NCBI GenBank assembly: GCA_041651395.1
Contig: JBAZJI010000001.1
Location: 182,533 to 246,532 of the forward strand
Direction of reading: 5' to 3'
DNA length: 64,000 nt
DNA from: Minisyncoccota bacterium
Lineage (GTDB): Bacteria; Patescibacteriota; Minisyncoccia; Minisyncoccales; JAGOPM01
Within the stretch, counting starts at the first letter, position 1. Each line of letters starts with the position of its first letter. The translations under genes were made by a program, and so were the position numbers. Below the pieces are notes generated by a model. That model was given only the letters and a program-made list of their open reading frames with translations, searched no databases and had not been told where the DNA came from. Shown in pieces: positions 2,125-51,340 of this stretch.

Positions 2125-3045
2125 TTAGCCCTGTTTTAGTGTGCTGCAAATTTCGTCTTTGGGACAATTTTGGCAGTAGATCTGCAAAGGAATAGTTGCA
2201 AATCTCATAAGGATAGTATAAATGGCCGGAGCCAGCACTGCCTGAATGGGAAAGAATTTTCCTGCCAAAACAGAAGCTAAAGTAAAATTGCGGTAAAGGC
2301 CAATGAGCCCGATTGTCGCCTTTTGTTTTTTTGTTTTGCCGACTAAAAATCCAAAACCTATTTCTACCAAGGAGACGATAATTAAAGCGATGGTAATCCA
2401 AAATATCTGATTGAGATTGCTAAAAACCGTTTCTCTGGCGCCGGCAACAATAGACCAAATCACGCAAAATATCAGAATAACATTTATTTTTTGCCCCTGC
2501 GGTTTTATTTGCTTGTCGAGTTTTAATATTTTTATAATGTAGGCAAAAGCAAAAGGAATAAGGATGGTTTGCAGAATAAATCCGGATATGTCGGTAAATT
2601 TTACTTCAATAATTTTTCCGGCCAATAGCCAAATCATCAAAGGGGTAAACAAGGGGCTTAAGAGATGCGTATAAACCGAGGCGGCCAATGATTTGCTGGT
2701 ATCCCCGTCCATAATATCTGTCATTGCGGCCGCGGAAACCGCTACGGGCGTAGCACAAACTAAAATTAGCCCAACGAAAAATCCCGAAGGTATGACTCGG
2801 CTAAAGGGTAGGCAGAGAATGGGGGCAAGAATCAGGACAGCCGCGGAAATCAGCGCCGCTTCCCGCCAATTTTTGAATTCCTTTTTTAGAGCTGGGATTT
2901 CTATATTCAGGAAACTAATGGTCATTATGCAGCCCAGGAGAAAGGTGGAATACGGTTTTAAGAGCAACCCGAATTGGGGGAATATTAAAGCAATAAATGG
3001 AGCCAGGCCGATAATATAAGCCGAATACCTTTTTAGGAAATCCAT
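2125..3045 (-). CDS. polytopic membrane protein, possibly BASS/SBF-type (bile acid:sodium symporter family) transporter
   Basis: 306 aa, roughly 9-10 hydrophobic helices, with size and helix pattern similar to the SBF/ACR3-like fold. A terminator hairpin (2111-2137) overlaps its stop codon. Confidence 0.4.
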   Translation of the reverse strand: MDFLKRYSAYIIGLAPFIALIFPQFGLLLKPYSTFLLGCIMTISFLNIEIPALKKEFKNWREAALISAAVLILAPILCLPFSRVIPSGFFVGLILVCATPVAVSAAAMTDIMDGDTSKSLAASVYTHLLSPLFTPLMIWLLAGKIIEVKFTDISGFILQTILIPFAFAYIIKILKLDKQIKPQGQKINVILIFCVIWSIVAGARETVFSNLNQIFWITIALIIVSLVEIGFGFLVGKTKKQKATIGLIGLYRNFTLASVLAGKFFPIQAVLAPAIYTILMRFATIPLQIYCQNCPKDEICSTLKQG

Positions 3046-3048
3046 AAA

Positions 3049-4011
3049 TTAGCGCAGATACATTTTGGTATTTTCTAGATGCTCGGCAAAATCACGCGAG
3101 GTGTGGATGTAGCCGGCTTTGTCGTGCATGTAATAAAGTTGGTCGGTAGTTTCAGGGTTGAGGGCCGCGCTAATGGCGGGCAAAGATGGGTTGCAGATGG
3201 GCTCTGGTGGCAAACCTTTGACTACATAGGTATTGTAGGGGGAGTCGATTTTATAATTTTCGCGGACAAGTTTTGGCCACCAGTCAGTGCTGGTGCCCAT
3301 GACGTATTGGACCGTGGCATCTATTTGTAATCTTTGGCCAAGATTCAGCCGATTTTGCAAAATACCGGCAATAATGGGTAATTCTTCCTGCCGGTAAGAT
3401 TCGCGCTGTAAAAGGGAAGCAATAATCAAAGTTTGTTTCTTTTTTTTCTCGCTCACGCCCGCCCAAATTGATTTGGTTTTTTTGGAAAATTCATCAAGCA
3501 TTTTTTTAGCCGCTTCTTTAGGCGCAATACCGCTTTTAAGCAGGTAAGTTTCGGGGAACATGCTGCCTTGCAAAGCATTGGCCAAAAATTCTGTTTTCTG
3601 TTCGTTGTCCCAATTTAATTCTTTGGCGAAAATATCGACAATTTCTTCATTACGCAAACCCTCAGGCACTTGGACCCAGAATTCGCTTTGCTTGGAGGTT
3701 AAAACATCGACTAATTGTTGCGGCCACATGCTGGGAGAAACCAGGTAGCCCCCGGCCTGGATTTTGCGCCCACGCAAAAAACTCAAAAATATGGTTTTGT
3801 TTCGGAATATTTTTTCCTTTTTGAGGCGCTCAATTATTTTATCCTGCGGCTCATTGAGTTTGACGATAAATTCCTGCTTAGGGCGGGGCTGGAAGCTAGA
3901 TGGCCCAAAAGCATTAAGCCAGAATAACGCTATTGTAGCTGCCAAAATCAAAAAAATTACGCCCGGGACTAGTAATTTTTTCCACAAAGGTGGAGCTTTC
4001 ATGTAGTTCAT
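3049..4011 (-). CDS. mltG: endolytic murein transglycosylase MltG (YceG family)
   Basis: N-terminal TM anchor, then conserved YceG-like blocks (GGYxL..., LQ.DATVQY, YNTYxxKGLPPxPI.NP). Confidence 0.75.
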   Translation of the reverse strand: MNYMKAPPLWKKLLVPGVIFLILAATIALFWLNAFGPSSFQPRPKQEFIVKLNEPQDKIIERLKKEKIFRNKTIFLSFLRGRKIQAGGYLVSPSMWPQQLVDVLTSKQSEFWVQVPEGLRNEEIVDIFAKELNWDNEQKTEFLANALQGSMFPETYLLKSGIAPKEAAKKMLDEFSKKTKSIWAGVSEKKKKQTLIIASLLQRESYRQEELPIIAGILQNRLNLGQRLQIDATVQYVMGTSTDWWPKLVRENYKIDSPYNTYVVKGLPPEPICNPSLPAISAALNPETTDQLYYMHDKAGYIHTSRDFAEHLENTKMYLR

Positions 4012-4155
4012 AAGACAAAATCAGCATAGCACAGCTTTTCCAATCGCCCTGTGGAAAGTTTTTTTGGGTTGACCCAGAAAAGGATTTATAATAAGGGCGG
4101 ATAAAGCTTTTTTTGAAAAGCTTAATCCTTTTGCGTATATATAAAAACATAAAAT

Positions 4156-7100
4156 ATGTCCCAATATAAAGTTTTTTGTAAAGCCATTTTCACGGTTTTC
4201 TGCGTTGTGATGGTTTTGGCATTTGCCGGTATCGCTAATGCCTTTACCCAGCAATCAACATCGCAAGTGAAATTCAGCAATATTAGCGTTTCTGGCGGTG
4301 GCGGGCAAATATTTATTTACGATAATAATAAATATGATCCGCAGACTGTTTCTGCCGATATTCGCAATACGCCGCTTAAGCCCTGCCTTGATACGAGGCA
4401 GCTTGGCAGTGGCGGGCTGAAGATTTCCTGGAATTTATCCGCCGCTAAACCGGTAGGCTTTGATCATTGGTATGTCCGCTATGCCTGCGCCAGCACGCCG
4501 GCTATTGCAGCTGATACCAATACTATCGGGCGGGCATATTCTGATACTATTACTTGGAGTAGCCCAGCTTTATCTGCGGGACAATATTGCAAGATTTGGG
4601 CCTATGCCATGAAGGGCAGTAATTCTAATGAAGGTCTAAATATTGGCTTGGGAGGGGCTAACACCAGCCCGATTCAAGCTTGTTCTTTGAAGCCCTCAAT
4701 TTCTATTTTAGAGGGCAAGACCCTGAGCGTGTCCTCAATTTCTATCACTGTCCGCTATAACGACACAGGGGACAATTCTGATAGAGGACAAATTTATGCT
4801 TACGTCTATGACTCTCTTTGCACAAAATTAATCGGTTATGCCGGACCTTCGACCGTAAGTAAGAATGGGACAATTACTTTGGTTAAGGGTTCTCTGGATG
4901 CTAACACGACTTATTGCGTGAAGCCTTACGCAATTTCTGATGACAATGTCAGGGGATTTGGGGCTACCCAAATGAAAATTACCACTGGTGCCAGCTCTCC
5001 TAAGCCTGCGGAAGATTTTTCTAATAATTTCAAAATTTGTCGAACAAGCGATACGGACAAGTGCAGCGATTTTACTACTCAAAGTCCTCTGACCTTACTG
5101 GCCTGTAATTCTTACGTTGCCGGTTTAGGTATCGCAAAATTTAACACTTGCTATCTTGTCAGTGACACAAATAGTGTTTTAGCGTGTAATGCGGCTTGCT
5201 CTAAAGCTTCCGGAGAGGCTTCTGAAGAGCTTTCTTATTGCGATACGGCCTTCAAATGTGTTGGCGGAAAAATGACCAAAACGGAATGCAAACTCAAAAA
5301 CGGTAATAAAGATTGTTGGACCGGGCTTTATTGCGGCGGGCAGTGGTATAATGCCGATTCTAAATGTATCCCCACGACCGCAGCCTTATTAATAAATCCT
5401 TATATTCCGGAAACAACTGATTTCAAATGTGTTTCCGAGACACTAAGTTCTAAAGTAGAAACCGCGCTTTTCGCCAAGTTGCTTTCGACTGGCGGGGCGG
5501 CCAGCGCCAATGTGTTTTTTGATGTGTATGATAAAAGCGCGAAATGGGTTGCCAGCCAGAGTTTTTCAGGAAAGGCCAGCGGTAGTGAGATGAGCTACAA
5601 TCCTTTACTCGAGCAAGGGACTGAATATCGCTTCAAGGCTTCGGCCTATACTTCTGGCAATTCCACCTCCGTTTCTGTTTTATTTACGACGCCTTATTGC
5701 ACAACGCCTGAGCCCTTGGAGGAACTTTCATATTGTGATGGTTTAGTTTGCCGAGGAGTAAAAACAACCAAGACCAAATGCCGCACCGAATTAAATAAGG
5801 GTTTGGACTGCCGCGCCGGGCTTTATTGCGGCGGGACAGCAAGCAATCCGGACCAGACTTGCAAAGCCGGTGCGCCGGCGGATTATAGTTTGCTGCTTTC
5901 TGTGCCCGAGGTGACCGTCAAAGATTGCAGTGCTGCCGGCTCTAAAGCGGATATTTCTGTGATTATGATGCCCAGCCTTGGCAGTAATAACAGCGGCAAT
6001 ATTCTAGTTGAACAGCTTGATGCCAATGGCTCGGTGGTGACCAGTAAGACGATTGCAAGCGTGCGCAGCCTGGAGAATTATTACTGGAATTTTTCTTTAA
6101 GCCCCAAACAGGCCGCAAAGGTTCGGGCGACCTTGTATGTAGTGGGCGGTAAAACTATTCAGACCAAGGATGTGGTCGTAAAGTGCGCCGAGGAACCAGT
6201 GAGTGTTTTTTCTTATTGTGAAGCCAAAACTTGCGTGGCCCGCAAAATGACCGAATCGGCTTGCCGGGCAGCTAATGGCGGCAAGGATTGCTACGTCAAT
6301 GCTTATTGCGGTGGGAAGATAAATAATCCCGATGCTAATTGTTTGGGTCTTGACCAAAATAAGATTGAAATTGTTTTACCTAGCCAGTTTGATCAGATTT
6401 GCGCTGGCGATACCATTATCCGCGCACCTGTGAAAATTAGAATTATTTCCACTTTTGGCGGAGTAATCGGCACAGCGACCGTGAAGGTATTAAATAGTTT
6501 TGGCACGGAGATACTTTCCCAAAAATATACTGATGCTAAAGCCGGGAGTGCCTATGGCAATGAAGTGATATTCCAGCCAAACCAAAAATATAAAGTGGAA
6601 GCCAGTTTAGGGACCAGTAATGCCGCGCCTTCTATTGTTTCTGCCGAATTCATTGCCAAGAGCTGCGCCACCCAGACCGATGAAGTCAAAACGAGATCAT
6701 TTTGCTCCGGTATTGTTTGCCGGACGGTGAAAGAAACTGCCGCAGAATGTAAAGCGGAAAATAACGGCAACGCCTGTTTTGAGGTTCCTTATTGCGGTGG
6801 AACTATTTCTGACTACGGCGACAGTAAGTGCACCTCCATAGACACTTCTAAGGAGCGCTCTTATTGCTCTGCCGGGAAGTGCACTACTATAAAAACCACG
6901 GCCGCTGATTGCAAAGCGCGCAATAATGGCAACGCATGTTTTGAGGTGCCATATTGCGGCGGGCTTTGGTATAACGGCGATTCCAAATGCCAACAATCCA
7001 GTTGCAGTAAAGAGAGTTTAAGAAGCTTATCTTCGGAACTTCGAAGCGTTTATGAAAATGCCGGCGGATATAAAAAATATTGCTACAAGGGGGTAACATT

Positions 7101-12579: not shown

Positions 12580-12606
12580 CGCGCCTGATTTTCGGGCGCG
12601 GGCTGA
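12580..12606 (+). terminator. hairpin terminator candidate between the two giant genes
   Basis: ccgcgcc-tgattttcg-ggcgcgg stem-loop immediately after the stop at 12570. The T-run is weak. Confidence 0.35.
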
Positions 12607-12632: not shown

Positions 12633-15600
12633 ATGCAAAAAAAATTCATTATCAGTGCGGTAGCGGTTGTTTTGGGGCTTTTGGCTATAGCGATAACGCC
12701 ATTATTTGCCCAGACAATCGAGAATTTAACGGCCGAACAGAAGGCGATATTTTTGCAAGTTTTAGCTGACGAAATTGCTATTCGAAAAGATATGGCCGGC
12801 CCGCAAGTTGCCGGGGCTTATGCTACGCCCGATGCGGCTTACGTGCCGCAGGCCAAAACCTTACTTTTTGTTAAGCCGAGGGTTTTGGGTGTCGTGGCTT
12901 TGTCGGGGAGTTTAACTTCCCGCTGTGGCGATGGTATTTGCGGCTCAGGGGAATATTATTCCAATTGTCCGAGTGATTGCGGCAAGGGGGCCACGTTGCC
13001 GGGTTATGGCGGCAATTTGACTGGTGGCTATAATCCTACCGGAAATCTTAACAGTGGCTCCTTGATTCAAAATCCCTGTAATTATAATTTTCAATGCGAG
13101 CCATTGCGCGGCGAAACTACTCTTAATTGCGCTTCGGATTGCAAAACCAGCGCTATCACTTATCCGGGAACGGTTGGCACGGGTGCAACAAATCTTGGTG
13201 GTGGTTTAATTTCCGGCGGGGCGAATCCCTGTAATTATAATAATTTGTGCGAGCCATTGCGCGGCGAAACTACTCTTAATTGTTTTTCTGATTGTAAATC
13301 TAGTTCTATTGGGACAGTGAATAATAATCCGCCATATCCGGGCTGGCTGAGGTGTGAGGTTTGTGGAAAGTGGTACAACCCCACAACCGGAAGATGTCCG
13401 GAAATATGCAATGAGACTGCCTCGGGAAGCGGCGAGGATTATACTAAGCAATCAGCTCCGATCACTTTGCCTCCGGAAGTAAAAGAGGGCAAAAATATTT
13501 TACGTGGCAGCGTTTCGGAAATTGTTGCGGGAGGCGAGCCGGGATTTATTGTTTATGATCCTAGCCAACCGCAAACCCGTGGTTCCCAAATCGGGGGAGC
13601 TGGTGGGGTACAAATCGGGGGTGTTCAAAGCGGGCAAACCAACGTTGGCTTTGGCTCTCAGGCCGGTGGCTTACCCGGATCAATAAGAATTAATGTTTCT
13701 GGATTCGTTTCCGCCAGTTATGACAAAACGACAAAAATATTTACGGCAACTTACGAAGATCCTACGCTTTTGCCCGGGAAGACGCGCGCTTATCGTGCCG
13801 CCATCAGGGTAAAGTCGGCTAGCTTATCGGGCGGTTATGCTTATATTGAGGCGCAAAACGAGCAATATATTTACGGGCAGGCTAAGGTTTTCAAAGCGGG
13901 TGAATGCCCTTGTCCCGAGACCGATGAATGGGTTTGTTACGATGTTTTTAGCTACAATACGACAACCAAGGTGGTGGCTACCTCTACGGCTGAGTTCAAA
14001 AATCCTTGTATTGCGGCTTGCGAAATTGGTAAAGTCCGCAAGGATAACCCGGCTACCAATTATAATTTTAAGAAGAACGGCAAATGCCAAACGAGCGATA
14101 CTATCCGCGGCAAAGATGTGACGGCGCCATTTAAGATTTCTACCGTTGGTCCGGCTGAAGTTACGGAGATTAAGCCGGGAGAAATGGGTTATGACCAAAA
14201 ACAAAAAAGGTTTAGGGTCAAGATTGCAATGAAGGTAGAGGATTTCGGTTCAATGCAGGCTATTCGCTTGCTGTCCAGTCCTTATCAATATAATAAGACC
14301 AAGAATCCCACCGGCGCTTTAGCTTTAGGCGAGGCTAAAAATATTTCCGCGAGCGCGCCGATTAATTCACAAGTGCAGATTTTTGATGCGAATAAAAATA
14401 TTCCCGGAACTTGGTTTATTAAGCCCGGCGATAATCAGAACCAAATAAGTTTTGAGGCGATTATTTCCGAGAATGGAGAACATTGCTTTATCGCGCGAGC
14501 TTATGCTATGCGAGATTATAAACCCGGTGATCAGTACCTTTCTAATACTGCTTATGCCGAACAATATTTAGTTAATGCCGATAATGAAGTTTGCGTGAAA
14601 GTAGAGGGCCTTGCCCAACAGGTGACTAAGGATTGTAAAACGATTAACGGCAAGGAAATTTGCATTAATGTAACTAATCCGTGCGTTGGCAATAATTGCA
14701 TTAATGTCGGCGAAGATTCGGTAATTACAGCTACTACGAGCCGACCGTTTGAAGACTTATCAATCGTGCAAGTGGCATCGCCAGAAGTTACAACCCTTGA
14801 AGCGGTTAACATTACGACTAATTCTATCACCTTAAGAGGAAGGTTAACCAAGCTGGGTGGCTCTCCGCCATGGGGCGATGATTCGCGATATGCCAAGCGC
14901 GAGACCTATGTGAGTTTTGGAGGGTCAAGCATTAAGGAAACTCCTAGCCAAAAAATGGCCACTGTCGGCGATTTTGAATATACTGTTAAGGAATTAAAAC
15001 CCGGAACGGAGTATTGCTATAATGCCATTGCTTGGCTGCAAAAAGCCGGCGCAACAACTCAGCCGACTGAATATGGCTTTATAGCTAGCGGAATAACCCT
15101 CGCCAAAGAGAAGGCTGCGTATGGCAAAAGCATTTGCGTAAAGACACAATTTGGTGATGCTTTGGAAAAAGCGGAAAGTTCAGAAAATCCGGAATTGGAA
15201 CTAGAAAAAATGGGTTATAAGACGAATTTAGACGAATTCGGAGTAAATTGGGCCAGTGCTTATAAGAATGTTGTCCGACCATTTACAATTACAGCTTCTT
15301 TCTTCTCCACTTCGATAAAACTCGATAGTGATACGATGTATGGCATGATGCACAAGACTGATTTAGAAAAAGAATCAATCGCTATTCCGGTTGTCGGCTT
15401 TGCCTTCCAGAGGGGCTCAACTGCGGCCAGCGGCCCATACGCGGGCGGGGCTATTTCTTTGTCTGGTGCTCCTGTGCAGCAAAGCGGCAAAACGTATTTT
15501 GTGATTGCCGGCAAGGGTATTGCTTTGGGTAAAGATGACTATACCTTCAATTTCAAAATGCCTGACATTTTGGCCGGCATGAGTTTTAATTATTATCCAT

Positions 15601-16976
15601 TCGCTATTTATGATGGCAAGATTTATTCCGCAAGTATGCCGGCTAAGATTTCTGCCGCGGCAGATAAAACTTATATCAACCCAGATATCAATGCCTTGGA
15701 AAATGGAGAATTAAAGCGCGGGTGGCAAAAGGGTTATTATAAAGCTGAGTTGCGCGGCGAAGTTCTTAAAATCGGCAGCGGCGCACAAGCAGCCAGTGGG
15801 GTTACGGTTGGATTCTCTATTATTTCTTCCGATGATAATTTAATCAGCAAGACGCATTCGGGATATGTGCAAGGAAGTAAGAGATTCGATTATCCAGGAG
15901 ATTTATCGTACGAATATGGCCAGATAAGGAGCGGATATACTTATTGCTATAAATTGGCTGCCGGCCTCTCGAATAGCTCCATGCAATATTCGGCTAAGGA
16001 GATCTGTTTTACTGCTCCAGTAGAAGATGATTGGAAATTAGATGTTTATACTGCGCCAACTTCCACGGCTTGGAAAAATCAAAGCGAACAATCTTACAGT
16101 GAGATTTGCGCCAAATGTGCCAATATCACTACCGCACCCCGCCCGCCCAATTCGTCTTTTACGTCTAGTTTTGGAATACGAACTGCGGTTTGCGCCAGCG
16201 ACAATAAGACTTACGAAAAAGAGTGTTTCCAATATTATTGCACGAAGGTCGGTTTAAGATTGAAGAGCTATGGTGCTTGCCAAACAACGCCTGTAGTCAC
16301 TATTAAAACCGGAACAGTGGCCAGCGGTATCTTGGCGTATAATAAGGCGATAGTGGCCAGAGTTAATAAGATTCCCGGTTCGGCTACACTTAGCACCAGC
16401 GACACGGCCAATGCAAACATTAAAGTTTTCATCCAAGCTGTGGGTGGGAGTGCCTATATTAAGACAAGCGGCGCATTCGTAGTTGGACTTTACGAAACAG
16501 CTAAGGGGCGCTTAGGGACTATCCCTCCGGATAAAATTAAATATAGTTGCGGCAGTGAAAGGGTAGGGTATTCTTATAAGATTTCTGCTATTGGTGGCAA
16601 TGAATGTGATTTGATTGTAAATTTTGAGCCCATTTATATGTCTTCAGCTGTCGGAAAATATTATGTGAGGCTGGAGAGTATTTTGTGGACGCAAACGGAA
16701 AATGGTGCAACAAAAGTTTCCTCTATTGTGGCCACTAGCGGAGATTATTTCTCGACTACTCCTGTAGATTTGATTTATCGCAAAGGCATTGCCGCGGGAA
16801 CGGGTAAACAATGTGTTTGCACTGCGCAATATCAGCCGGTTTGCGCTGTACCACCCGGATTTACTCAGCCGCAAATTTATCCAAATCTTTGTTATGCCCA
16901 GTGCGACAATGCTACGGCCAAAACAGAGTATCAAGTGATAGGCGGGAAGTGTGTTTACGTGAACTATAATCGCTAA
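12633..16976 (+). CDS. giant secreted protein (about 1447 aa) with CGDGxC…NCPxDC modules, FN3-like signatures and Kazal-type inhibitor-like domains
   Basis: Start taken at ATG 12633 (MQKKFIISAVAVVLGLLAIAITPLFAQ signal peptide); the tracker start 12567 overlaps the upstream gene and terminator. Kazal-like: AVCASDNKTYEKECFQYYCTKVGLRLKSYGAC and CVCTAQYQPVCAV…LCYAQCDNATAKTEYQVIGGKC. Cys modules: RCGDGICGSGEYYSNCPSDC, NPCNYNFQCEPLRGETTLNCASDC (twice). Confidence 0.75.
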   Translation: MQKKFIISAVAVVLGLLAIAITPLFAQTIENLTAEQKAIFLQVLADEIAIRKDMAGPQVAGAYATPDAAYVPQAKTLLFVKPRVLGVVALSGSLTSRCGDGICGSGEYYSNCPSDCGKGATLPGYGGNLTGGYNPTGNLNSGSLIQNPCNYNFQCEPLRGETTLNCASDCKTSAITYPGTVGTGATNLGGGLISGGANPCNYNNLCEPLRGETTLNCFSDCKSSSIGTVNNNPPYPGWLRCEVCGKWYNPTTGRCPEICNETASGSGEDYTKQSAPITLPPEVKEGKNILRGSVSEIVAGGEPGFIVYDPSQPQTRGSQIGGAGGVQIGGVQSGQTNVGFGSQAGGLPGSIRINVSGFVSASYDKTTKIFTATYEDPTLLPGKTRAYRAAIRVKSASLSGGYAYIEAQNEQYIYGQAKVFKAGECPCPETDEWVCYDVFSYNTTTKVVATSTAEFKNPCIAACEIGKVRKDNPATNYNFKKNGKCQTSDTIRGKDVTAPFKISTVGPAEVTEIKPGEMGYDQKQKRFRVKIAMKVEDFGSMQAIRLLSSPYQYNKTKNPTGALALGEAKNISASAPINSQVQIFDANKNIPGTWFIKPGDNQNQISFEAIISENGEHCFIARAYAMRDYKPGDQYLSNTAYAEQYLVNADNEVCVKVEGLAQQVTKDCKTINGKEICINVTNPCVGNNCINVGEDSVITATTSRPFEDLSIVQVASPEVTTLEAVNITTNSITLRGRLTKLGGSPPWGDDSRYAKRETYVSFGGSSIKETPSQKMATVGDFEYTVKELKPGTEYCYNAIAWLQKAGATTQPTEYGFIASGITLAKEKAAYGKSICVKTQFGDALEKAESSENPELELEKMGYKTNLDEFGVNWASAYKNVVRPFTITASFFSTSIKLDSDTMYGMMHKTDLEKESIAIPVVGFAFQRGSTAASGPYAGGAISLSGAPVQQSGKTYFVIAGKGIALGKDDYTFNFKMPDILAGMSFNYYPFAIYDGKIYSASMPAKISAAADKTYINPDINALENGELKRGWQKGYYKAELRGEVLKIGSGAQAASGVTVGFSIISSDDNLISKTHSGYVQGSKRFDYPGDLSYEYGQIRSGYTYCYKLAAGLSNSSMQYSAKEICFTAPVEDDWKLDVYTAPTSTAWKNQSEQSYSEICAKCANITTAPRPPNSSFTSSFGIRTAVCASDNKTYEKECFQYYCTKVGLRLKSYGACQTTPVVTIKTGTVASGILAYNKAIVARVNKIPGSATLSTSDTANANIKVFIQAVGGSAYIKTSGAFVVGLYETAKGRLGTIPPDKIKYSCGSERVGYSYKISAIGGNECDLIVNFEPIYMSSAVGKYYVRLESILWTQTENGATKVSSIVATSGDYFSTTPVDLIYRKGIAAGTGKQCVCTAQYQPVCAVPPGFTQPQIYPNLCYAQCDNATAKTEYQVIGGKCVYVNYNR

Positions 16977-16988
16977 TCTCGGATCGGA

Positions 16989-17030
16989 AATGGGTCATCC
17001 GAGAAAAGGATGATCCATTTTTTATTTTTT
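16989..17030 (+). terminator. strong Rho-independent terminator after the second giant gene
   Basis: 11-bp stem atgggtcatcc / ggatgatccat (one G-U) with loop gagaaaa, followed by ttttttatttttt. Confidence 0.6.
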
Positions 17031-17390: not shown

Positions 17391-19556
17391 ATGGTGAAAA
17401 AGCTCGAAAAGATTCAAAAAAGGGATGGCCGCATTGTTGATTTTGATCAAGTGAAGATTACCGACGCGGTCGAGAAGGCGATTTTGGCAACCAATGCCGG
17501 TGACGGGGCAATGGCCGCAAAAGTTTCTGATAAAGTGACCGATATTTTATCTAGAAGATTTCGTAAGGGCGAGGCGCCTAATATCGAACAGGTACAAGAT
17601 GTTATTGAGGAGGTATTGATGCTGGAAGATTTGGTGGAAACGGCCAAGGCTTACATTATTTATCGTGAGCAACGCCGCCAATTACGCGAAATCGAAAAAG
17701 CTACTGATGAATCGGTTGGGCACGTCGAGCAATATTTGAATAAACTGGATTGGGAGGTGAAGGAGAATGCCAATATGGCTTATTCTTTGCAGGGTCTTAA
17801 CCATTATGTGGCGACCTATGTGATGAAAAAATATTGGCTGGAAAAAATTTATCCCAAAGAAGTCCGCGAGGCCAATGAGAACGGGGCTTTTCATGTGCAT
17901 AATTTAGATACACTTGGACCGTATTGCATGGGTTGGGATCTTTACGATTTTTTACTCAAGGGCTTTGGCGGGGTTAACGGCAAAGTGGAATCTAAACCGC
18001 CAAAACATTTCCGTTCTGCCCTTGGGCAAATTGTAAACTTTTTGTACACCATGCAGGGGGAGTGCGCCGGAGCCGTGGCCTTTTCTAATTTTGATACTTT
18101 GCTAGCCCCTTACATTCGCCATGACAATTTGAATTATCAGCAAGTTAAGCAGGCGATGCAGGAGTTCATGTTTAATTTGGCTGTGCCGACTCGGGTTGGA
18201 TTTCAGACGCCCTTTACTAATATTACTTTAGATATTAAACCCTCAGCGGCTTTTGCCAGTGAGCCGGCTTTAGTGGGTGGCGTGGCGCAAGAAAAAACCT
18301 ATTCCGAATATCAGGAAGAAATGCGGATTTTAGATAAAGCTATTTATGAGTGTATGTTGGAGGGTGATAAAAATGGACGGCCCTTTACCTTTCCGATACC
18401 AACTATAAATATTACGAAGGATTTTGATTGGGATAACCCCGATCTTGATATCGTTTGGGAGGCGACGGCAAAATATGGCATAAATTATTTTGCCAATTAC
18501 ATAAATTCGGAAATGGATCCCAAGGATGTGCGCTCGATGTGTTGCCGGCTTCGCTTGGATTTGACCGAGCTGCGTAATCGCGGCGGCGGCGGACTTTTTG
18601 GGGCTGGAGCTCTGACCGGCTCAGTGGGTGTGGTAACCATTAATTTGCCCAGAATCGGCCATACTTCTAAAACCAAAAAGGAGTTTTTTGCCCAGTTGCA
18701 TAAAATAATGGATTTGGCTAAAGACAGTTTGGAGATAAAGCGCAAGGTTTTGGAAAATTTCATTGAGAAGGGCCTTTATCCTTATTCGCGCTATTATTTA
18801 GCCGGAGTCAGAAAGGCCCGCGGAAAATATTTTGCCAATCATTTTTCTACCATCGGCCTTACGGGTATGAATGAAACCCTTTTGAATTTTTTGGGTGAGG
18901 ATATCGGCTCGCAAAAAGGGCGTAAATTCACTTTAGAGGTGCTCGATTATATGAGAGATGTATTGGTCAAATACCAAGAGGAAACCGGAAATATTTATAA
19001 TTTAGAGGCGACGCCGGCAGAAAGTACTTCCTATCGCTTGGCGCTTAAGGATTTGAAGATGCACCCCGATATAATCCACGCCGGAACCAAGGAAGTGCCT
19101 TACTATACTAATTCCACCTTATTGCCGGTCAATTATACCGATGATGTTTTTGAGACTCTGAAACTGCAAGACGAGATACAATGTAAATATACCGGCGGAA
19201 CGGTCTTGCATATTTTTGTCGGGGAGAGGATACACGAAATAGGGCCAGTGAAGAATTTAGTCAAAAAAATATTCAGCAAATTCCGACTTCCTTATATTAC
19301 CATTACTCCGACCTTTTCTATTTGCCCCGTGCATGGATACATTTCCGGCGAGCACAAGACTTGCCCCAAGTGCGTGGTGCAGCAGCCTTGCGAGGTGTAT
19401 TCGCGCATTGTTGGGTACTTGAGGCCGGTCAACCAGTGGAATGAAGGCAAACAGCAGGAATATTGTGACCGGAAAACTTATAAAGTGGAAATTCCCCAAG
19501 CTGCTCCCGCCCAAGAGGGCTCACACGTCCAGGCAATCTTAGTTAAAGAACCCTAA
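17391..19556 (+). CDS. nrdD: anaerobic ribonucleoside-triphosphate reductase (class III RNR)
   Basis: N-terminal ATP-cone (MVKKLEKIQKRDGRIVDFDQVKITDAVEKAI). C-terminal Zn-ribbon CPVHGYISGEHKTCPKC and glycyl-radical-type RIVGYL motif. 721 aa. Confidence 0.85.
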   Translation: MVKKLEKIQKRDGRIVDFDQVKITDAVEKAILATNAGDGAMAAKVSDKVTDILSRRFRKGEAPNIEQVQDVIEEVLMLEDLVETAKAYIIYREQRRQLREIEKATDESVGHVEQYLNKLDWEVKENANMAYSLQGLNHYVATYVMKKYWLEKIYPKEVREANENGAFHVHNLDTLGPYCMGWDLYDFLLKGFGGVNGKVESKPPKHFRSALGQIVNFLYTMQGECAGAVAFSNFDTLLAPYIRHDNLNYQQVKQAMQEFMFNLAVPTRVGFQTPFTNITLDIKPSAAFASEPALVGGVAQEKTYSEYQEEMRILDKAIYECMLEGDKNGRPFTFPIPTINITKDFDWDNPDLDIVWEATAKYGINYFANYINSEMDPKDVRSMCCRLRLDLTELRNRGGGGLFGAGALTGSVGVVTINLPRIGHTSKTKKEFFAQLHKIMDLAKDSLEIKRKVLENFIEKGLYPYSRYYLAGVRKARGKYFANHFSTIGLTGMNETLLNFLGEDIGSQKGRKFTLEVLDYMRDVLVKYQEETGNIYNLEATPAESTSYRLALKDLKMHPDIIHAGTKEVPYYTNSTLLPVNYTDDVFETLKLQDEIQCKYTGGTVLHIFVGERIHEIGPVKNLVKKIFSKFRLPYITITPTFSICPVHGYISGEHKTCPKCVVQQPCEVYSRIVGYLRPVNQWNEGKQQEYCDRKTYKVEIPQAAPAQEGSHVQAILVKEP

Positions 19557-19678
19557 ATTTTCCCCCGCCTAAAAAGCGGGGAAAGGTTTAGAATGAAAAA
19601 TATCCAATGGATACCGGCGAAAGCCGGTATGGCAAAATGAAATTATTGGTTCAACTAAATTAGTTATCGGTTGATTTT

Positions 19679-20386
19679 ATGCTTATTGGCGGATTGCAAA
19701 AAACAACATTAATTGATTATCCGGGTAAAATAGCCTGCGTTGTTTTTTTGGCCGGTTGTAATTTTCGGTGCCCATTTTGTTACTCAGCGGAAATTGTTTT
19801 GCCGGAAAAAATTTTAAGGCAGCCGACGATCAGCGAGGAAAAATTTTTTGCTTTTCTGAAGGACAAAGTCGGGATGCTCGACGGGGTAGTAGTCTGCGGC
19901 GGAGAACCGACCTTAAATGAGGATTTACCCAATTTTATAAAGAAAATAAAAAATTTAGGATTTTTGGTGAAGCTGGATACTAACGGCAGCAATCCCGCCA
20001 TGCTTAAAAAGCTCCTTAAGGGAAATTTTCTCGATTATGTAGCTATGGATATCAAAGCCAAGCCTGAAAATTATAAAAAGGTTGGCTGTGGTGCCTCGGA
20101 TTTTCAAAAAGTAGAGGAAAGCGTAAAAGAGTTGAAGAAAAATAATATTGCCTTTGAATTTAGAACCACGATGGTTCCGGGCTTGGTTTCGGCTTCGGAT
20201 ATGCCCCAAATTGCCAAATGGATCGGCGGTTTAGACGTTCCTTATTATTTACAGAATTTTCGTCCGGATAAAACTTTAGACCCTTCCTTGATGTCTCTTT
20301 CCCCTTATACTGACCAAGAAATCAAAGAAGCCGAACAAGCCGCCAAGCCGTATTTTAAGAGTGTGAAAGTGCGAAACTATATTTGA
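19679..20386 (+). CDS. nrdG: anaerobic RNR activating protein (radical SAM)
   Basis: CNFRCPFCYS (CxxxCxxC radical-SAM cluster motif) near the N-terminus, plus the GGEPTL motif. Immediately downstream of nrdD. Confidence 0.75.
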   Translation: MLIGGLQKTTLIDYPGKIACVVFLAGCNFRCPFCYSAEIVLPEKILRQPTISEEKFFAFLKDKVGMLDGVVVCGGEPTLNEDLPNFIKKIKNLGFLVKLDTNGSNPAMLKKLLKGNFLDYVAMDIKAKPENYKKVGCGASDFQKVEESVKELKKNNIAFEFRTTMVPGLVSASDMPQIAKWIGGLDVPYYLQNFRPDKTLDPSLMSLSPYTDQEIKEAEQAAKPYFKSVKVRNYI

Positions 20387-24127: not shown

Positions 24128-24235
24128 AGTTTCAGTAATTATTTTGACTTCTAAATAATAGTATAATTTTTCATTTTTGGCAAGAGGATGAAGGGTTTGC
24201 GATATTTTGGCGCTGTTTGGTATAATGAGTCTGAT

Positions 24236-25180
24236 ATGAAAAAGATTTTATTTGCGCTTGTTATATTTTCTATTTTAATCGCGCCAAAGGTTTTGGCCTA
24301 CCAAGAATGGGTTGATAGCGGCTATAGGCAATCATCATATTCGGGGTTGGATTGCGGTAACTCGCCATTCACTTGTTATATTTCCGAGGATTACGTGGAG
24401 GCCAAGTATAATCAAGATATGGCCCAATATTACGCAGCCCAAAATACGGCCGGAGAAACCAATGATTATTCTATTATAAGGCAGCTAAGCCTTCCTGTTT
24501 ATGCAGGGGAAATGGTTGACGGGCGCCTTTATTGCTATTTTGGTTATGTTGAAAATCCCCAGACTCAGCGTTGCGAGAGAATAAGCGTGCCGGAAAATGC
24601 GGCACTTAGCGAGAGTGGAAAGGGGTGGAGCTGCTTATTCGGGTTTAAGAAAGTTTATGGCCAAGATGTTTGCGAATTGGATTCCGTCCCTTCTTTGGCC
24701 AAGGTTAAACTAGACAACCATACCAATGATTGGGGTTGCGTTTTTGGCTTCAAAAAGGCCTTCGGCGGTTGTGAGAGATTGATTTTCCCAGCGCATGGGC
24801 ATGCAGATTCTGAGGCTAAAGATGGTTGGGATTGCGATAGAGGATACGAGCGAACCGAAGATGGGGACTTTTGCCAGAAGATTGAAATTCCGGCTAATGC
24901 CAAACTCAGCAAGGCCGGCAAATCCTGGGTTTGCAATTCCGGCTATGCTGTACAGTATTTGGCCAATGATCAAAGAATTTGTGTTAAGGCCGGAACAGTA
25001 AAATCTCCCCTCAGAGCAGTGGCCGGGGTCAAAAAACTAAGCTGTAAATTTGGCTATGAGGATTCGGGCGGGGAGTGCACGAAAATTTTAATTCCGCTTA
25101 ATGGCCAGCTGGCCGCTGACGGCAAATCCTGGGTTTGTAAGTCGGGGTACCGAAAGGTTGAAGGCCGATGTCTAAGATAA
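24236..25180 (+). CDS. secreted protein with about six ~38-aa Cys-containing repeats (GxxWxCxxGY/F…C…IPANAxLSxxG)
   Basis: Start taken at ATG 24236 (MKKILFALVIFSILIAPKVLA signal peptide) rather than the tracker start 24188. Repeats read directly. TGgTATAAT lies at 24218-24226, only 10 nt upstream. Confidence 0.55.
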   Translation: MKKILFALVIFSILIAPKVLAYQEWVDSGYRQSSYSGLDCGNSPFTCYISEDYVEAKYNQDMAQYYAAQNTAGETNDYSIIRQLSLPVYAGEMVDGRLYCYFGYVENPQTQRCERISVPENAALSESGKGWSCLFGFKKVYGQDVCELDSVPSLAKVKLDNHTNDWGCVFGFKKAFGGCERLIFPAHGHADSEAKDGWDCDRGYERTEDGDFCQKIEIPANAKLSKAGKSWVCNSGYAVQYLANDQRICVKAGTVKSPLRAVAGVKKLSCKFGYEDSGGECTKILIPLNGQLAADGKSWVCKSGYRKVEGRCLR

Positions 25181-47112: not shown

Positions 47113-50100
47113 TTACTGTAATTCGGGCGGGTTAAAGTCCTTAAATGTTTTTCTTGAGATATCGTAAATTTCTCCAACCTCAGCTAGTTTGCTTAATGGG
47201 AACAGGATATAGGTTTGGTCCCCGGATAAGCCAGAAACATTTTGGCCGCAGCTATCACTTAACCTCCCATTGTAATTCTTATCAACGGCCGTGGTCAGGC
47301 GGAATAATTTGCGGGGGCTCTGGGGGGATGCAATCGAATCATTGCCAACTGCTTTAACCGAGTTTTTATCATATTCGTCCCAGCGGGAAATATTTACGTA
47401 GTGCGATGGATTGCCGTAGCAGCGCATAATTATCGGAATACCCCGGGAAGTAAACCTCTGGGTTTGCTCCCAATTAACAAATTGCCGGTCAGGGAATTTA
47501 TCGCCCATGCTGCTAGAGCCGGTAATCGGCATAAAGACCATGCCCAGATTTGTTTGGAAATCCTTAAAAATATTATGTTTGCCGCTTAAAGCCCAATCAA
47601 CGGAAAAAAGACCTTTACAGGTTAAGTAGCGCAAAACTTTATAAGTGGTTGGCTCATACTTTTCATAGCGCTCCTCGACGCTTAATTTGGAATCATCGAT
47701 TTTTTCGTATGGCTTCCAATCGTCATTACAGCTGTTGGTTTTGATGTCGTAAAAACAACCGCGAATGGCCAGATTATATTCCCGCTGCCAATTAGCGCGG
47801 AAGGAGTTGTCGTTGCGATACCAGTAGGCAAAAGACATGGAAAGCGCGCTATCGCCACAGCCGGCCGAGCCGACCACAGACATTCTATCTGTGGCATAAA
47901 GGCGGCGGCAGGAAGTGTATTGTCCGCTGGTTTGGGAGAATTGCGGCACGTCAGTCATAGAAATAATCGATTTGGGCTCTCCGCAATTCAGGCAGGAAAA
48001 AGTATTATTCCCAGTGCAGTCGGTGGCCACGCAAGCTTGCCATTTATAAAGGTAGCGGGAATATTTTTTCTTAACTTCGAGGTATTCATAAACCGGCAGG
48101 CCTTGATTCTTCATTTTTTCGGAAACATAATCTTCAAACGGATTATTAAGGGCATAATAGAACATTCCTTTTTCGGCCGGGACGGCAACCATGTGCTCGC
48201 GTTTGCGTAATCCCTGTGAGCAGGCAAACCGGGTATCAAAACTGATTGAGGGATCGTCTCCGGCCGGCTCTTCGGAGCAGATATTGAAGTAATATTTGGC
48301 TTGGGGATTGCCCTTACCCAGAGTTTTGGCCGCTCCAGAGAAGAGAATTTTTTGCCAGCTCATGGAGTAGGCTTTCAAAGTCAAAGCTTGCGGGGATTCG
48401 ATATTAAATTCTTTAGTTACGGGGAGGGAATATTTTTTGTCGCCGTATTTGCCCATATTCTCGGCAATCAGGGTGGCAAAAAATTTCTTTTTTCCGTCCA
48501 AGTGGTCATTGCCGATTAAAACTCCAAACAGGCTGCCCGATTTTTCAGCGCGTGAAAAGGTTACCCGGTGGGGATTTTTCTTAAAGAAAGGATCGTCTTT
48601 GGGGTTGAGCTTGGTATTAACCGGCTCGCCCTCCAGCCACCAATAGGCCCAGATAAGAGCGCCACTGCCGCCCTCATTAGTGGTGTTACCATCGGAAAGA
48701 AGTTGCCCGGTAACATTATAGGAAAAGGTTTTGCTATTGGCCGGATAGGTAATGTTTTTTATCCGGAAATCATCGGCTTCCAGCGTCGGCTTGGCAAATG
48801 ATGTTTTGAAGGGGATTATCTCTCCATAGGTTGTCCCCGCATTATTTGCGCCCACAGCCTGGACGCAATATTCCGTATCGGGCTTAAGCCCGTTTTGGGA
48901 ACCAAAATAGTAAAGCCCGTTGCGGGAGCCGGTCTTGGCTTCAAAAAATTGTTCTTTATCTTTAGCCTGGGGCTCGATGCTGCAATCGGCAAGGTAGAAT
49001 ATATCGCTTTTATCAGTGATATTTTCTACTGGCCGTTTTCTGGCTTCCCACACCCTAAACCAGGTCTTGAAGCTGCTATCATAAATATTTTGTTCGTCGA
49101 GTTTGGCTTCAAAACTGGCCGAGGTATCTTTGATAAAATTTAAGGCATTAAGCCCGCAAGGTTCGGGTTGGGATTTTCCAATAAAGGGGGTAAATTGGGT
49201 GTAATAATAGGGGAGGTAATTTTGCGGCGTGGAAGCGTCGGGCGGTACAAAAAATTTGCAGGTTTGGATTCTGGGCAGGCGCAAAGTTTTGAAGATACCG
49301 ACATTGGTTTTATCGGTATATTTATCCGTGGGCGAATTAGCCACCACCGAGCGGAAACAATATTGCCCGCCGCCCTCTTCAAGGGTGTCTACTACCACTC
49401 CGTAAGTTACTTTACCCGAATCTTTTTTCTGTTTGTAATAAAATATTTCGACAGCCTTATCCTGGAGTGACCTTATCTCTTCAGGATCAGGTATTTGTTT
49501 TTTATCGGTGCAGGGCCAATACTCAAACCAAGCTTTAACGGCATTGCGATTTCCACCTGAACTTATAATTTCCCCTTCCAGCCGGGCCTTGGTTGTCCCG
49601 ATACCTTCAGCCGACACGGTTTTGGATTGAAGGGGCAGAACCGCCTCCGAGCATTGATAACCGTCATAGGCTTTTTGTTCGGTGCGCCCTAAGTTTTGCG
49701 CTGCTGCCTTCCAGCAATATTTTTGATTGTATTCCACATCCAGATCAGTGGTAAAATATTGCCCGCCCGGCTCTGTTCTCAGGTCAATGGATTTTAGAAT
49801 TTTTGGGTTGGGTATGGGGCCTTGCCATTGGTTGCGCAGAGCATCTTGGTATTTGGCCCAGTAAAAATAAGTATAGCCTTTGCTGATACTGACGGTTTGG
49901 TCAAAGCGGAAAATTCGCCCGCCTAACCGGATTTTGTTTACTAATTCCGGGCTATCCGATCTTTTTAGATAGAAAAAGTCGGTGGACTCGTCATACACTT
50001 CGTTTTTCACCCAGTTTTGGCAATTTTCATCGCCTAAGGTGGTAAAGCACTGAGCATTTTTTTTATCAACCGAATAACCCCAATCCGTGTGAGCTAAGGC

Positions 50101-51195
50101 AAAAAAGCAGTAGGGGGTGCAGGGTTGAAGGCCGGTGATTTGGGCAAAATGTTTTCCCGCTTTAGTGAACTTGGGATTGGCCGCATAAGGAGTTTTTATG
50201 GTCGTGGAAACATTATCCTGGTCGTAGGCATTGTAATAATTAAACCAGGGCACGGCGCCACTCGGGTCATCCCCGGGGTCGACTATTTCCATGCTTAGAA
50301 CCGCACTATTTCTGGTAACTTTTTCCGCAGACAGAGTTTTTAACTTGGTGCGATAAAGAAAAACCGTTTGGCCGTTAATATCGCAAATGCTTTTACCGGA
50401 AAACCAACCGTTTTTATTCCATGCCGAGGCTTGATAGCAATAATTTTGCAGTGGGGGCAAGAAATTTTTAGTGGTATAAGAATAAATACTGTTATTCAGC
50501 ACCGGGGGAAGGTCGTCAGTGGATTTGTTCGGATCGATTCTGATAACGAGGCTGTTTTCCATACCATCGCGGACCAATGTTTCTCTGGGGAAAAGGTCCC
50601 AGGCGATGTAGGGTTCCTGCAAATCATTACCATTGCTGTAAAAGCTGGCGCGAAAAGTCGTATCACCCAAACTTTGGTTTTGGGTAGTGGCCTCGGTATT
50701 AATCATGGGCAGAAGTTTGGGAATTTCATCCCTGGGACAGATTGTAAATTCTGGGCTTGCATAAGCCAAATTTTTGGCTTTATCAAATACCCGCATTTTG
50801 CAGAAGCAGTTACGCGACACATCGGCATCTTGATAGGTGCGTGAATCCTGCGGCACAGTCCAAATACCGGTCATTTCTTTCTGGTTGGGCGTTTCACCTT
50901 CGGCTAATTGGGCGGGGGTAGAGCGTTGCCCGTAAGAAATGTATTCCTGTCCTGTATAGCCATAGGCCGAATAGCAAATGACGTCAAAAAACGGATAGTC
51001 GGCGGTTTTTCCAGAAGTTTCCTTCCAGTGAAATTCCAAATCCACTCCGCTGGGGAAAAACGTAAAATAGGGATCGTTAAAAGACGTCGAGCGGTTACCG
51101 AAAATTATTCGGGTCGCGAATTGGGCCGCTTGGGTATAACTGGCGGCAAAAGCAATCAGGAATACGCAAAAAAGAAAGACGAAAAATTTCTTCAT
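47113..51195 (-). CDS. giant secreted protein (about 1360 aa) with multiple FN3-like signatures and a Cys-rich C-terminal region
   Basis: Start set at the Met giving signal peptide MKKFFVFLFCVFLIAFAASYTQA (revcomp of 51193-51195). Repeated TxYCxxAxAxNxxG motifs (TEYCVQAVGANNAGTTYG, GQYCFRSVVANSP, YCWKAAAQNLG). C-terminal SVVGSAGCGDSALSMSFAYWY block. Confidence 0.7.
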   Translation of the reverse strand: MKKFFVFLFCVFLIAFAASYTQAAQFATRIIFGNRSTSFNDPYFTFFPSGVDLEFHWKETSGKTADYPFFDVICYSAYGYTGQEYISYGQRSTPAQLAEGETPNQKEMTGIWTVPQDSRTYQDADVSRNCFCKMRVFDKAKNLAYASPEFTICPRDEIPKLLPMINTEATTQNQSLGDTTFRASFYSNGNDLQEPYIAWDLFPRETLVRDGMENSLVIRIDPNKSTDDLPPVLNNSIYSYTTKNFLPPLQNYCYQASAWNKNGWFSGKSICDINGQTVFLYRTKLKTLSAEKVTRNSAVLSMEIVDPGDDPSGAVPWFNYYNAYDQDNVSTTIKTPYAANPKFTKAGKHFAQITGLQPCTPYCFFALAHTDWGYSVDKKNAQCFTTLGDENCQNWVKNEVYDESTDFFYLKRSDSPELVNKIRLGGRIFRFDQTVSISKGYTYFYWAKYQDALRNQWQGPIPNPKILKSIDLRTEPGGQYFTTDLDVEYNQKYCWKAAAQNLGRTEQKAYDGYQCSEAVLPLQSKTVSAEGIGTTKARLEGEIISSGGNRNAVKAWFEYWPCTDKKQIPDPEEIRSLQDKAVEIFYYKQKKDSGKVTYGVVVDTLEEGGGQYCFRSVVANSPTDKYTDKTNVGIFKTLRLPRIQTCKFFVPPDASTPQNYLPYYYTQFTPFIGKSQPEPCGLNALNFIKDTSASFEAKLDEQNIYDSSFKTWFRVWEARKRPVENITDKSDIFYLADCSIEPQAKDKEQFFEAKTGSRNGLYYFGSQNGLKPDTEYCVQAVGANNAGTTYGEIIPFKTSFAKPTLEADDFRIKNITYPANSKTFSYNVTGQLLSDGNTTNEGGSGALIWAYWWLEGEPVNTKLNPKDDPFFKKNPHRVTFSRAEKSGSLFGVLIGNDHLDGKKKFFATLIAENMGKYGDKKYSLPVTKEFNIESPQALTLKAYSMSWQKILFSGAAKTLGKGNPQAKYYFNICSEEPAGDDPSISFDTRFACSQGLRKREHMVAVPAEKGMFYYALNNPFEDYVSEKMKNQGLPVYEYLEVKKKYSRYLYKWQACVATDCTGNNTFSCLNCGEPKSIISMTDVPQFSQTSGQYTSCRRLYATDRMSVVGSAGCGDSALSMSFAYWYRNDNSFRANWQREYNLAIRGCFYDIKTNSCNDDWKPYEKIDDSKLSVEERYEKYEPTTYKVLRYLTCKGLFSVDWALSGKHNIFKDFQTNLGMVFMPITGSSSMGDKFPDRQFVNWEQTQRFTSRGIPIIMRCYGNPSHYVNISRWDEYDKNSVKAVGNDSIASPQSPRKLFRLTTAVDKNYNGRLSDSCGQNVSGLSGDQTYILFPLSKLAEVGEIYDISRKTFKDFNPPELQ

Positions 51196-51340
51196 ACTCG
51201 TCTTTATTCTATCCGAAAATTGCAAAAAGGGATGTGCAAAACTCCTTATTTTATAGAGTTAAAAAGGCTCTACTTTACAAATCAAAAATTTGTGATATAA
51301 TTAGGTAATTAACAAAAACATACGGAAAGGAGGGGATAAC

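Follow-up and report, generated by a model that had tools for sequence, protein, structure and literature searches.

A candidate Kazal-type protease-inhibitor module at the C-terminus of a predicted extracellular protein in a Patescibacteria genome

Kazal domains pack a single alpha-helix against a beta-sheet of three strands, with disulfides 1-5, 2-4 and 3-6. Their binding loop is defined by a cysteine at P3, a threonine or proline at P2, the P1 and P1' residues, a tyrosine at P2' and a bracing asparagine. Among described members, the closest to the locus considered here is the Anemonia elastase inhibitor (AEI; 1y1b, analogue 1y1c; MEROPS I1, "non-classical"), a free animal protein of 48 residues with the loop C-T-M-Q-Y-D-P-V-C and the motif Y-G-N-A-C. 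A second group, comprising LDTI (1ldt/1an1), rhodniin and infestin, has the spacings Cys1-x-Cys2-x7-Cys3 and Cys4-x3-Cys5. The locus itself is a gene in a 64-kb stretch of contig JBAZJI010000001.1 from a Minisyncoccota bacterium ("the window" below, 64,000 nucleotides), encoding a 1447-aa protein with three six-cysteine modules, K1, K2 and K3, of which the C-terminal one, K3, is placed here in the Kazal family. The features on which the argument turns are these:

12633..16976, + strand: the Kazal-bearing gene, from the open reading frame (ORF) list and translation; 1447 aa, likely start ATG at 12633, stop TAA at 16974-16976
13905..14087, + strand: K1, aa 425-485; C-x-C-x7-C-x23-C-x3-C-x21-C; CPCPETDEWVC...NPCIAACE...GKC
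16107..16280, + strand: K2, aa 1159-1216; six-cysteine module C-x2-C-x24-C-x10-C-x4-C-x12-C
16185..16280, + strand: Kazal core of K2, aa 1185-1216; VCASDNKTYEKEC...C...GAC, containing AVCASDNKTYEKECFQYYCTKVGLRLKSYGAC
16812..16952, + strand: K3, aa 1394-1440; C-x-C-x7-C-x15-C-x3-C-x15-C; CVCTAQYQPVC...NLCYAQC...GGKC; the last module, 47 residues, ending 7 residues before the stop

An earlier sequence-only reading had described Kazal-like domains embedded in a giant bacterial surface protein. The three segments that it quoted are present where it placed them. A single ORF in frame 3 of the + strand encodes them all, each within a six-cysteine module, and the interval 13890-16960 lies entirely within that ORF. 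As to their Kazal identity, the modules differ: it is borne out for the C-terminal K3, holds weakly for the central K2, and finds no significant match for the segment near 13900.

The C-terminal module and its Kazal relatives

Measured against the spacing C1-x(1-8)-C2-x7-C3-x~10-C4-x2-3-C5-x~10-17-C6, the six cysteines of K3 stand in Kazal order and spacing, the sole deviation being a C3-C4 hairpin that is longer by 5 residues (15 residues, against 10 in AEI). All six are conserved in two orthologs: a 521-aa protein from a Logan assembly (P0003; L001:10001-11566), whose K3 is 61% identical, and a 1470-aa protein from a metagenome-assembled genome (MAG) in GTDB (L003; CAZQSQ010000003.1), which is 92% identical and has K1, K2 and K3.

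With K3 alone as query, phmmer against the PDB gave as its top match the AEI analogue 1y1c (E=0.002), with six cysteines aligned. A two-sequence profile of the window K3 and its ortholog reached the same entry at E=8.6e-6, again with six cysteines in register, followed by PSTI, SPI-1, LDTI, a silk inhibitor, infestin and OMSVP3; a joint profile of K3 and the Hyphomicrobiales modules described in the last section matched 47 PDB entries at E<=1; almost every one is a Kazal inhibitor, and 1y1c ranks first at E=1.5e-9. When full-length proteins were searched, 1y1c was the only PDB match of the window protein (P0001; E=0.21) and was matched by the 521-aa ortholog at E=3.8e-4. Smith-Waterman z-scores of K3 against composition-preserving shuffles were 9.7-15, where two bona fide Kazal domains compared with each other gave 12.4. 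An independent reference profile, made from AEI, LDTI and two Pseudochrobactrum modules and including no window sequence, scored K3 at 29.5 bits in the window and 46.1 bits in the 521-aa ortholog, values reached by 0/3000 shuffles.

The predicted reactive-site loop of K3, C1396(P3)-T(P2)-A1398(P1)-Q(P1')-Y(P2'), lies at nt 16818-16832 and continues as Q-P-V-C, giving C-T-A-Q-Y-Q-P-V-C beside the AEI loop given above, and the two proteins have Y-x-N-x-C-x3-C in common. The spacer asparagine, Asn1418, stands in Y-P-N-L-C1420, two residues ahead of Cys4, so that none of the residue classes of a canonical binding loop is lost. In the 521-aa ortholog the loop is C-T-M-E-Y-A-P-I-C, with Met at P1 rather than Ala. 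K3 differs from AEI in belonging to a bacterial protein of 1447 aa, of which it is the last module, and in being known from sequence.

Pfam sees less of this. A Pfam Kazal hit above threshold, set beforehand as a test, narrowly failed to appear (gathering cut-offs 22.8 bits for Kazal_2 and 21 bits for Kazal_1): K2 came nearest at 21.7 bits on Kazal_2, and K3 and K1 gave nothing. Native K3 from the window matched no Pfam hidden Markov model (HMM), and the best orthologous copy, in the 1470-aa protein, reached 15.7 bits on Kazal_1. The K3 hairpin carries a 5-residue insertion, VPPGF; with it removed in silico, Kazal_2 scored the window K3 at 21.3 bits and that of the 521-aa ortholog at 27.8 bits, above the cut-off, over HMM positions 2-48. 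The in-silico deletion raises the score, and the blindness of Pfam to K3 is therefore ascribed to the insertion. Given the PDB profile search, the cysteines in register and the canonical reactive-site loop, K3 is placed in the Kazal family despite the Pfam miss: judged from its sequence, it is a genuine Kazal-type domain of the "non-classical" C-x-C / C-x3-C spacing class.

The central and upstream modules

K2 is a borderline case. The 21.7 bits of the isolated segment on Kazal_2 (E=2e-4; 21.0 in a second scan) cover HMM positions 13-48 only, and on Kazal_1 two scans gave 18.3 and 17.2 bits; the copy in the 1470-aa ortholog, with 2 substitutions, rises to 23.0 bits on Kazal_2, just over the cut-off. 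Its weak PDB matches are mostly Kazal proteins (LDTI, infestin, rhodniin, follistatin, SPARC, ovomucoid), its z-score against LDTI is 7.8 (Smith-Waterman, shuffles), and on the independent reference profile it scores 14.5 bits, a value that 0/3000 shuffles attain. The core of K2 aligns with LDTI from Cys3 to Cys6. Ahead of it, where LDTI has its 7-residue reactive loop, C1162-C1187 spans 24 residues rich in proline, serine and threonine (ANITTAPRPPNSSFTSSFGIRTAV), in place of the canonical segment, and the position of the bracing asparagine is taken by lysine (Y-E-K-E-C). Because of these two replacements a role for K2 as a standard-mechanism inhibitor appears unlikely. It may be described as an atypical Kazal core, borderline in its homology, and is probably a structural or binding module, or else an atypical inhibitor.

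The main rival of an inhibitory function for K3 is that the modules are Kazal-homologous but non-inhibitory: disulfide-braced structural, spacer or ligand-binding units of an adhesin-like extracellular protein, comparable to the follistatin-type (FS) modules of follistatin, SPARC and agrin. The loss of the canonical loop in K2 to a 24-residue Cys2-Cys3 segment and a Pfam match confined to part of the HMM fit this, as does the presence of follistatin and SPARC/BM-40 among its weak PDB matches; the host protein is built from FN3-like and other beta-domains, and no protease partner genes lie nearby in the 64-kb window. K3 itself fits it poorly, since it keeps the P3 Cys, P2 Thr, P2' Tyr and spacer Asn, its closest relatives are the single-domain functional inhibitors AEI, LDTI, infestin, PSTI and ovomucoid, and its free C-terminal position suits an exposed inhibitor. 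On balance this alternative seems unlikely, at a level that still calls for it to be taken seriously.

K1 is harder to place. It has the motif F-K-N-P-C-I-A-A-C and, like K3, the spacings of the LDTI group (Cys1-x-Cys2-x7-Cys3 and Cys4-x3-Cys5), and its six cysteines are all kept in both orthologs. It differs from that group in a C3-C4 segment of 23 residues, a hairpin 13 residues longer, and in having no significant similarity to it. Against Pfam and the PDB it found no match, either native or with the 13-residue hairpin insert removed in silico, and when scanned in the context of the whole ORF it scored 3-4.5 bits, which is noise. On small custom Kazal profiles the window copy reached 12-14 bits, equalled by 0-4 of 3000-5000 shuffles, and the copy of the 521-aa ortholog 4.9-10 bits, the lower value being reached by 49/3000 shuffles. 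An AlphaFold2 model of K1, from a two-sequence alignment, has an overall predicted local distance difference test (pLDDT) score of 49.1; its elements, at pLDDT 53-71, are a hairpin (433-442, 447-456), a helix (458-471, with C4 and C5) and a strand (476-480). Their predicted order is the Kazal order, with the long hairpin starting at Cys3. A comparison of K1 with K3 by hhalign placed the two in register at E=0.02-0.06 and a probability of 1-2%, and was rejected as evidence of relatedness.

These results bear on a further alternative, that the resemblance is due to chance: lineage-specific cysteine-rich segments sharing Kazal cysteine spacing in a genome with cysteine-rich secreted proteins. The window sequence has no threshold-level Pfam match, K1 has no significant match anywhere and falls to noise level in its ORF, its comparison with K3 is not significant, and other cysteine-rich repeats abound nearby. 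Set against this, K3 is matched significantly in unbiased whole-protein and profile searches, and Kazal is the sole Pfam family touched by any native segment of K1, K2 or K3. A scan with Kazal profiles gives no hit, among the matches listed, for the neighbouring protein of 2804 aa with 182 cysteines. For the modules as a set, chance is thus very improbable; it is tenable for K1 only, which has about an even chance of not being Kazal-related. To put it the other way, whether K1 is a divergent Kazal domain is, from its sequence, roughly evenly balanced, and its homology to Kazal domains is not demonstrated.

Host protein, orthologs and gene neighborhood

The protein has an identical entry in NCBI/JGI, MFA5165843.1 ("hypothetical protein WC449_00880"), from a Candidatus Paceibacterota MAG, for which no Pfam domains are precomputed; an NCBIfam search of it gave no match. 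Other features of the host gene and its surroundings are:

12633..12710, + strand: predicted Sec signal peptide, MQKKFIISAVAVVLGLLAIAITPLFA|QT, read from the sequence, with a putative cleavage site
12924..13409, + strand: four small 4-Cys mini-modules; CGDGICGSGEYYSNCPSDC; 2x CNYNxxCEPLRGETTLNCxSDC; CEVCGKWYNPTTGRCPEIC
14751..15032, + strand: FN3-like beta-sandwich domain, aa 707-800, within a spacer block of ~905 aa that is missing from the 521-aa ortholog
16986..17022, + strand: intrinsic terminator-like hairpin and T-run, a 15-bp stem followed by TTTTTTATTTTTT, directly 3' of the stop codon
4156..12570, + strand: gene for a 2804-aa secreted protein with 182 Cys, from ORF and translation; separate, upstream and co-oriented

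The signal peptide lacks a lipobox cysteine and, like the four mini-modules, is kept in P0003, in L003 and in P0041, a fragment mentioned below; a Pfam scan of the mini-modules found no family match. The gene product would be a modular protein that a Paceibacterota bacterium, a member of the candidate phyla radiation (CPR), exports through Sec to the cell exterior. The "giant surface protein" of the sequence-only reading calls for correction: the host has 1447 aa and no recognisable anchor, and the giant gene is the separate one upstream.

That upstream protein has no match in Pfam or NCBIfam. Its several families of internal cysteine-rich repeats include units of the form "SYC...C...NNGxxCFxxPYCGG" (aa ~360-1240) and "KCGDxKCEGYEDKCNCPxDC" (aa ~1590-1850). 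The intergenic gap between the two large genes is 62 nt and has no T-run terminator, and their order is kept in both ortholog loci (L001, where the upstream protein has at least 3312 aa, and L003). Since the only convincing terminator sits 3' of the Kazal-bearing gene, at 16986-17022, the two are probably co-transcribed as operon partners. Within the gap, at 12581-12601, is a GC-rich hairpin, cgcgcc-tgattttc-gggcgcg, with no adjoining T-run, which may serve in the processing or stability of the mRNA or attenuate transcription weakly.

Relatives of the whole protein are few. A word-indexed homology search returned self-hits only with the full protein, one fragment (P0041) with the 521-aa ortholog and nothing with a K2/K3 alignment, with which no candidate shared three 5-mers; for this reason no deep alignment is available. 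An exhaustive HMMER search with aa 249-1447 against 1.84 billion representatives gave 39 hits, of which 37 are to the FN3-like domain, in multi-repeat proteins; P0003 is the only hit that covers a Kazal-like module (K1), all others being to the FN3-like domain. Sampled relatives of that domain carry Pfam fn3 or Pur_ac_phosph_N. Beyond the FN3-like domain the family is tiny. A genome scan brought up L003, and a single candidate from a metagenome scan proved to be a WD40 protein and was discarded as a false positive.

The 521-aa ortholog is syntenic, with the giant gene upstream and nrdD, nrdG and ADK-like genes downstream. Its N-terminal region and K1 are as in the window protein, and a 48-residue linker of proline, serine and threonine then leads directly to K3; it lacks ~905 aa holding the FN3-like domains and K2 (14088-16811 in the window), so that K1 and K3 form the retained core. 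This length polymorphism (521 versus 1447-1470 aa) resembles insertion or deletion of a domain block, altering the length of a "stalk". Between the window and L003, the ratio of nonsynonymous to synonymous substitution rates (dN/dS) is 0.088 (dS 0.43), and 0.061 inside the K modules, placing the gene and its modules under purifying selection. The taxon labels of these two conflict: the L003 sequence is titled "uncultured Candidatus Saccharibacteria bacterium", and the window protein is Candidatus Paceibacterota in NCBI.

The setting of the gene also speaks to its origin. The best-characterised Kazal proteins are eukaryotic, as is the sea-anemone inhibitor that is the top PDB match, and a Kazal domain here might have come in by contamination during assembly or binning, or by very recent transfer with an animal or protist as donor. 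The gene, however, lies on a 957-kb contig among ordinary bacterial neighbors, namely yceG, nrdD/nrdG, ADK-like, secY, adk, map, alaS and tpiA genes and a ribosomal-protein, EF-G/EF-Tu region; GC content is uniform over the locus at 0.42-0.46, syntenic orthologs occur in two other assemblies, and in hairpin length and loop K3 is similar to Kazal modules of bacteria (Hyphomicrobiales). A eukaryotic source is effectively refuted by synteny, with composition also against it, and is left with next to no probability.

Several further features of the neighborhood may be recorded. Large proteins that lack annotation and look extracellular are unusually numerous in the window, among them one of 1369 aa (47113-51225, - strand), essentially without family assignment apart from a sub-threshold FN3-like Pur_ac_phosph_N match, and one of 1516 aa (56760-61310, + strand), likewise essentially without assignment. 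A four-cysteine mini-module, "CGDGxCxxxExxxxCxxDC", is found in three large secreted proteins of the window (12924-12980; 60147-60281; aa ~1599-1851 of the upstream protein) and matches no Pfam family. A 330-aa ORF (24188-25180, + strand) encodes a small protein of cysteine-rich modules with weak, sub-threshold EGF_MSP1_1 and Antifungal_pept matches. Directly downstream of the Kazal-bearing gene, at 17391-20386 (+ strand), are NrdD (ATP-cone and NRDD) and a radical-SAM activase; the nrdD neighbor suggests an anaerobic or facultative lifestyle.

Possible roles and comparison with known systems

The elements on which the standard (Laskowski) mechanism depends are preserved in K3, and blocking of serine proteases is therefore its likeliest function. 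The P3 cysteine would be tied to the helix by the predicted disulfide pairing and the loop braced by the asparagine two residues before Cys4, allowing K3 to bind tightly, in substrate-like fashion, and block extracellular serine endopeptidases that accept a small or hydrophobic P1 (Ala or Met), probably from a host or from neighboring microbes. Both the cell surface and the presumably co-expressed giant cysteine-rich protein would be shielded by such inhibition. The variable stalk might hold K3 away from the cell, with the FN3-like domains as a spacer of variable length and K2, possibly also K1, as accessory Kazal-derived modules. On grounds of motif conservation and homology, we slightly favor the reading of K3 as a tethered inhibitor that acts by the standard mechanism on elastase-, chymotrypsin- or subtilisin-like serine proteases. 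A fuller scenario is doubtful as a whole: here a CPR episymbiont would present a functional K3 on the end of a variable stalk, co-expressed with the giant protein, and would neutralise serine proteases of hosts or predators at the cell-cell interface. Protection from, or manipulation of, host proteases, which had been proposed for the Kazal-like domains in general, appears plausible for K3 only.

Several observations weigh against an inhibitory Kazal reading. The Pfam scan of the whole 1447-aa protein found as its sole Kazal signal a sub-threshold match to Kazal_1 (E=0.9), and no native hit on the window's own protein attains the gathering threshold. Structure prediction offers little help: the C-terminal model with K2 and K3 (AlphaFold2, two-sequence alignment) was unusable at pLDDT 34.7, and Foldseek against the PDB with the K1 model returned only noise, with no Kazal match. 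The 64-kb window yielded no identifiable serine protease gene, host or anchor, and the hint of an anoxic lifestyle means that extracellular disulfide formation is not self-evident. Many Kazal-like modules of multidomain proteins (follistatin, SPARC, agrin), moreover, inhibit no protease.

The Kazal family is already known, and this case reveals no new mechanism or fold. Patescibacteria, or CPR bacteria, depend on other cells, and to our knowledge almost nothing is known of the function of their large, unannotated, cysteine-rich extracellular proteins; K3 is a concrete biochemical handle on such a protein, in the form of a 50-residue domain. It hints that resistance to extracellular proteolysis is part of CPR surface biology. 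A literature search found, among the matches listed, no paper linking Kazal domains with CPR bacteria. If K3 is indeed displayed and functional, Patescibacteria would gain their first Kazal inhibitor of functional meaning, and with it a sub-lineage of bacterial Kazal domains would be defined, marked by a longer hairpin and overlooked by standard HMMs. The case also shows that small insertions hide genuine Kazal domains from Pfam thresholds, so that family I1 probably has more members in bacteria than current counts suggest.

Three known systems, beyond AEI and the LDTI group, offer points of comparison. The FS modules of follistatin, SPARC/BM-40 and agrin are Kazal-like cores in multidomain extracellular proteins, as is K2 in its host, and as a rule do not inhibit proteases, but they have an N-terminal EGF-like hairpin with extra cysteines, whereas K2 has six cysteines only, and its PDB matches to follistatin and SPARC (E 0.4-1.2) are not significant. 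The oomycete secreted Kazal-like effectors EPI1 and EPI10 have been shown experimentally to inhibit the host subtilase P69B (summarised in PMC9904509). These are eukaryotic proteins, and the analogy with K3 is one of putative function: a secreted Kazal-like module, a host-dependent organism and extracellular subtilisin-like targets.

The bacterial comparison comes from a tblastn search of plasmids with K3, which led to WP_213600308.1 of Pseudochrobactrum algeriensis (NZ_CP075356.1; L005:1375-1887), annotated as a "hypothetical protein". It is lipoprotein-like, with two four-cysteine Kazal modules, and scores 32.2 bits on Pfam Kazal_1, above the cut-off. Its relatives occur in 9/72,556 PLSDB records, all Hyphomicrobiales, including replicons of Sinorhizobium and Shinella, several of which have no annotation at that position. 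The earlier remark that Kazal domains are uncommon in bacteria is a fair one on this count; they are rare there, yet not new. WP_213600308.1 is unlike K3 in missing Cys1 and Cys5, in being a small two-module lipoprotein and in coming from a different phylum, and their similarity of ~40% (tblastn E=0.5) is not significant by tblastn alone. Its loop, C-T-M-E-Y-A-P-V-C, is nevertheless almost identical to the K3 loop of the 521-aa ortholog, and its hairpin too is longer than in animal Kazal domains.

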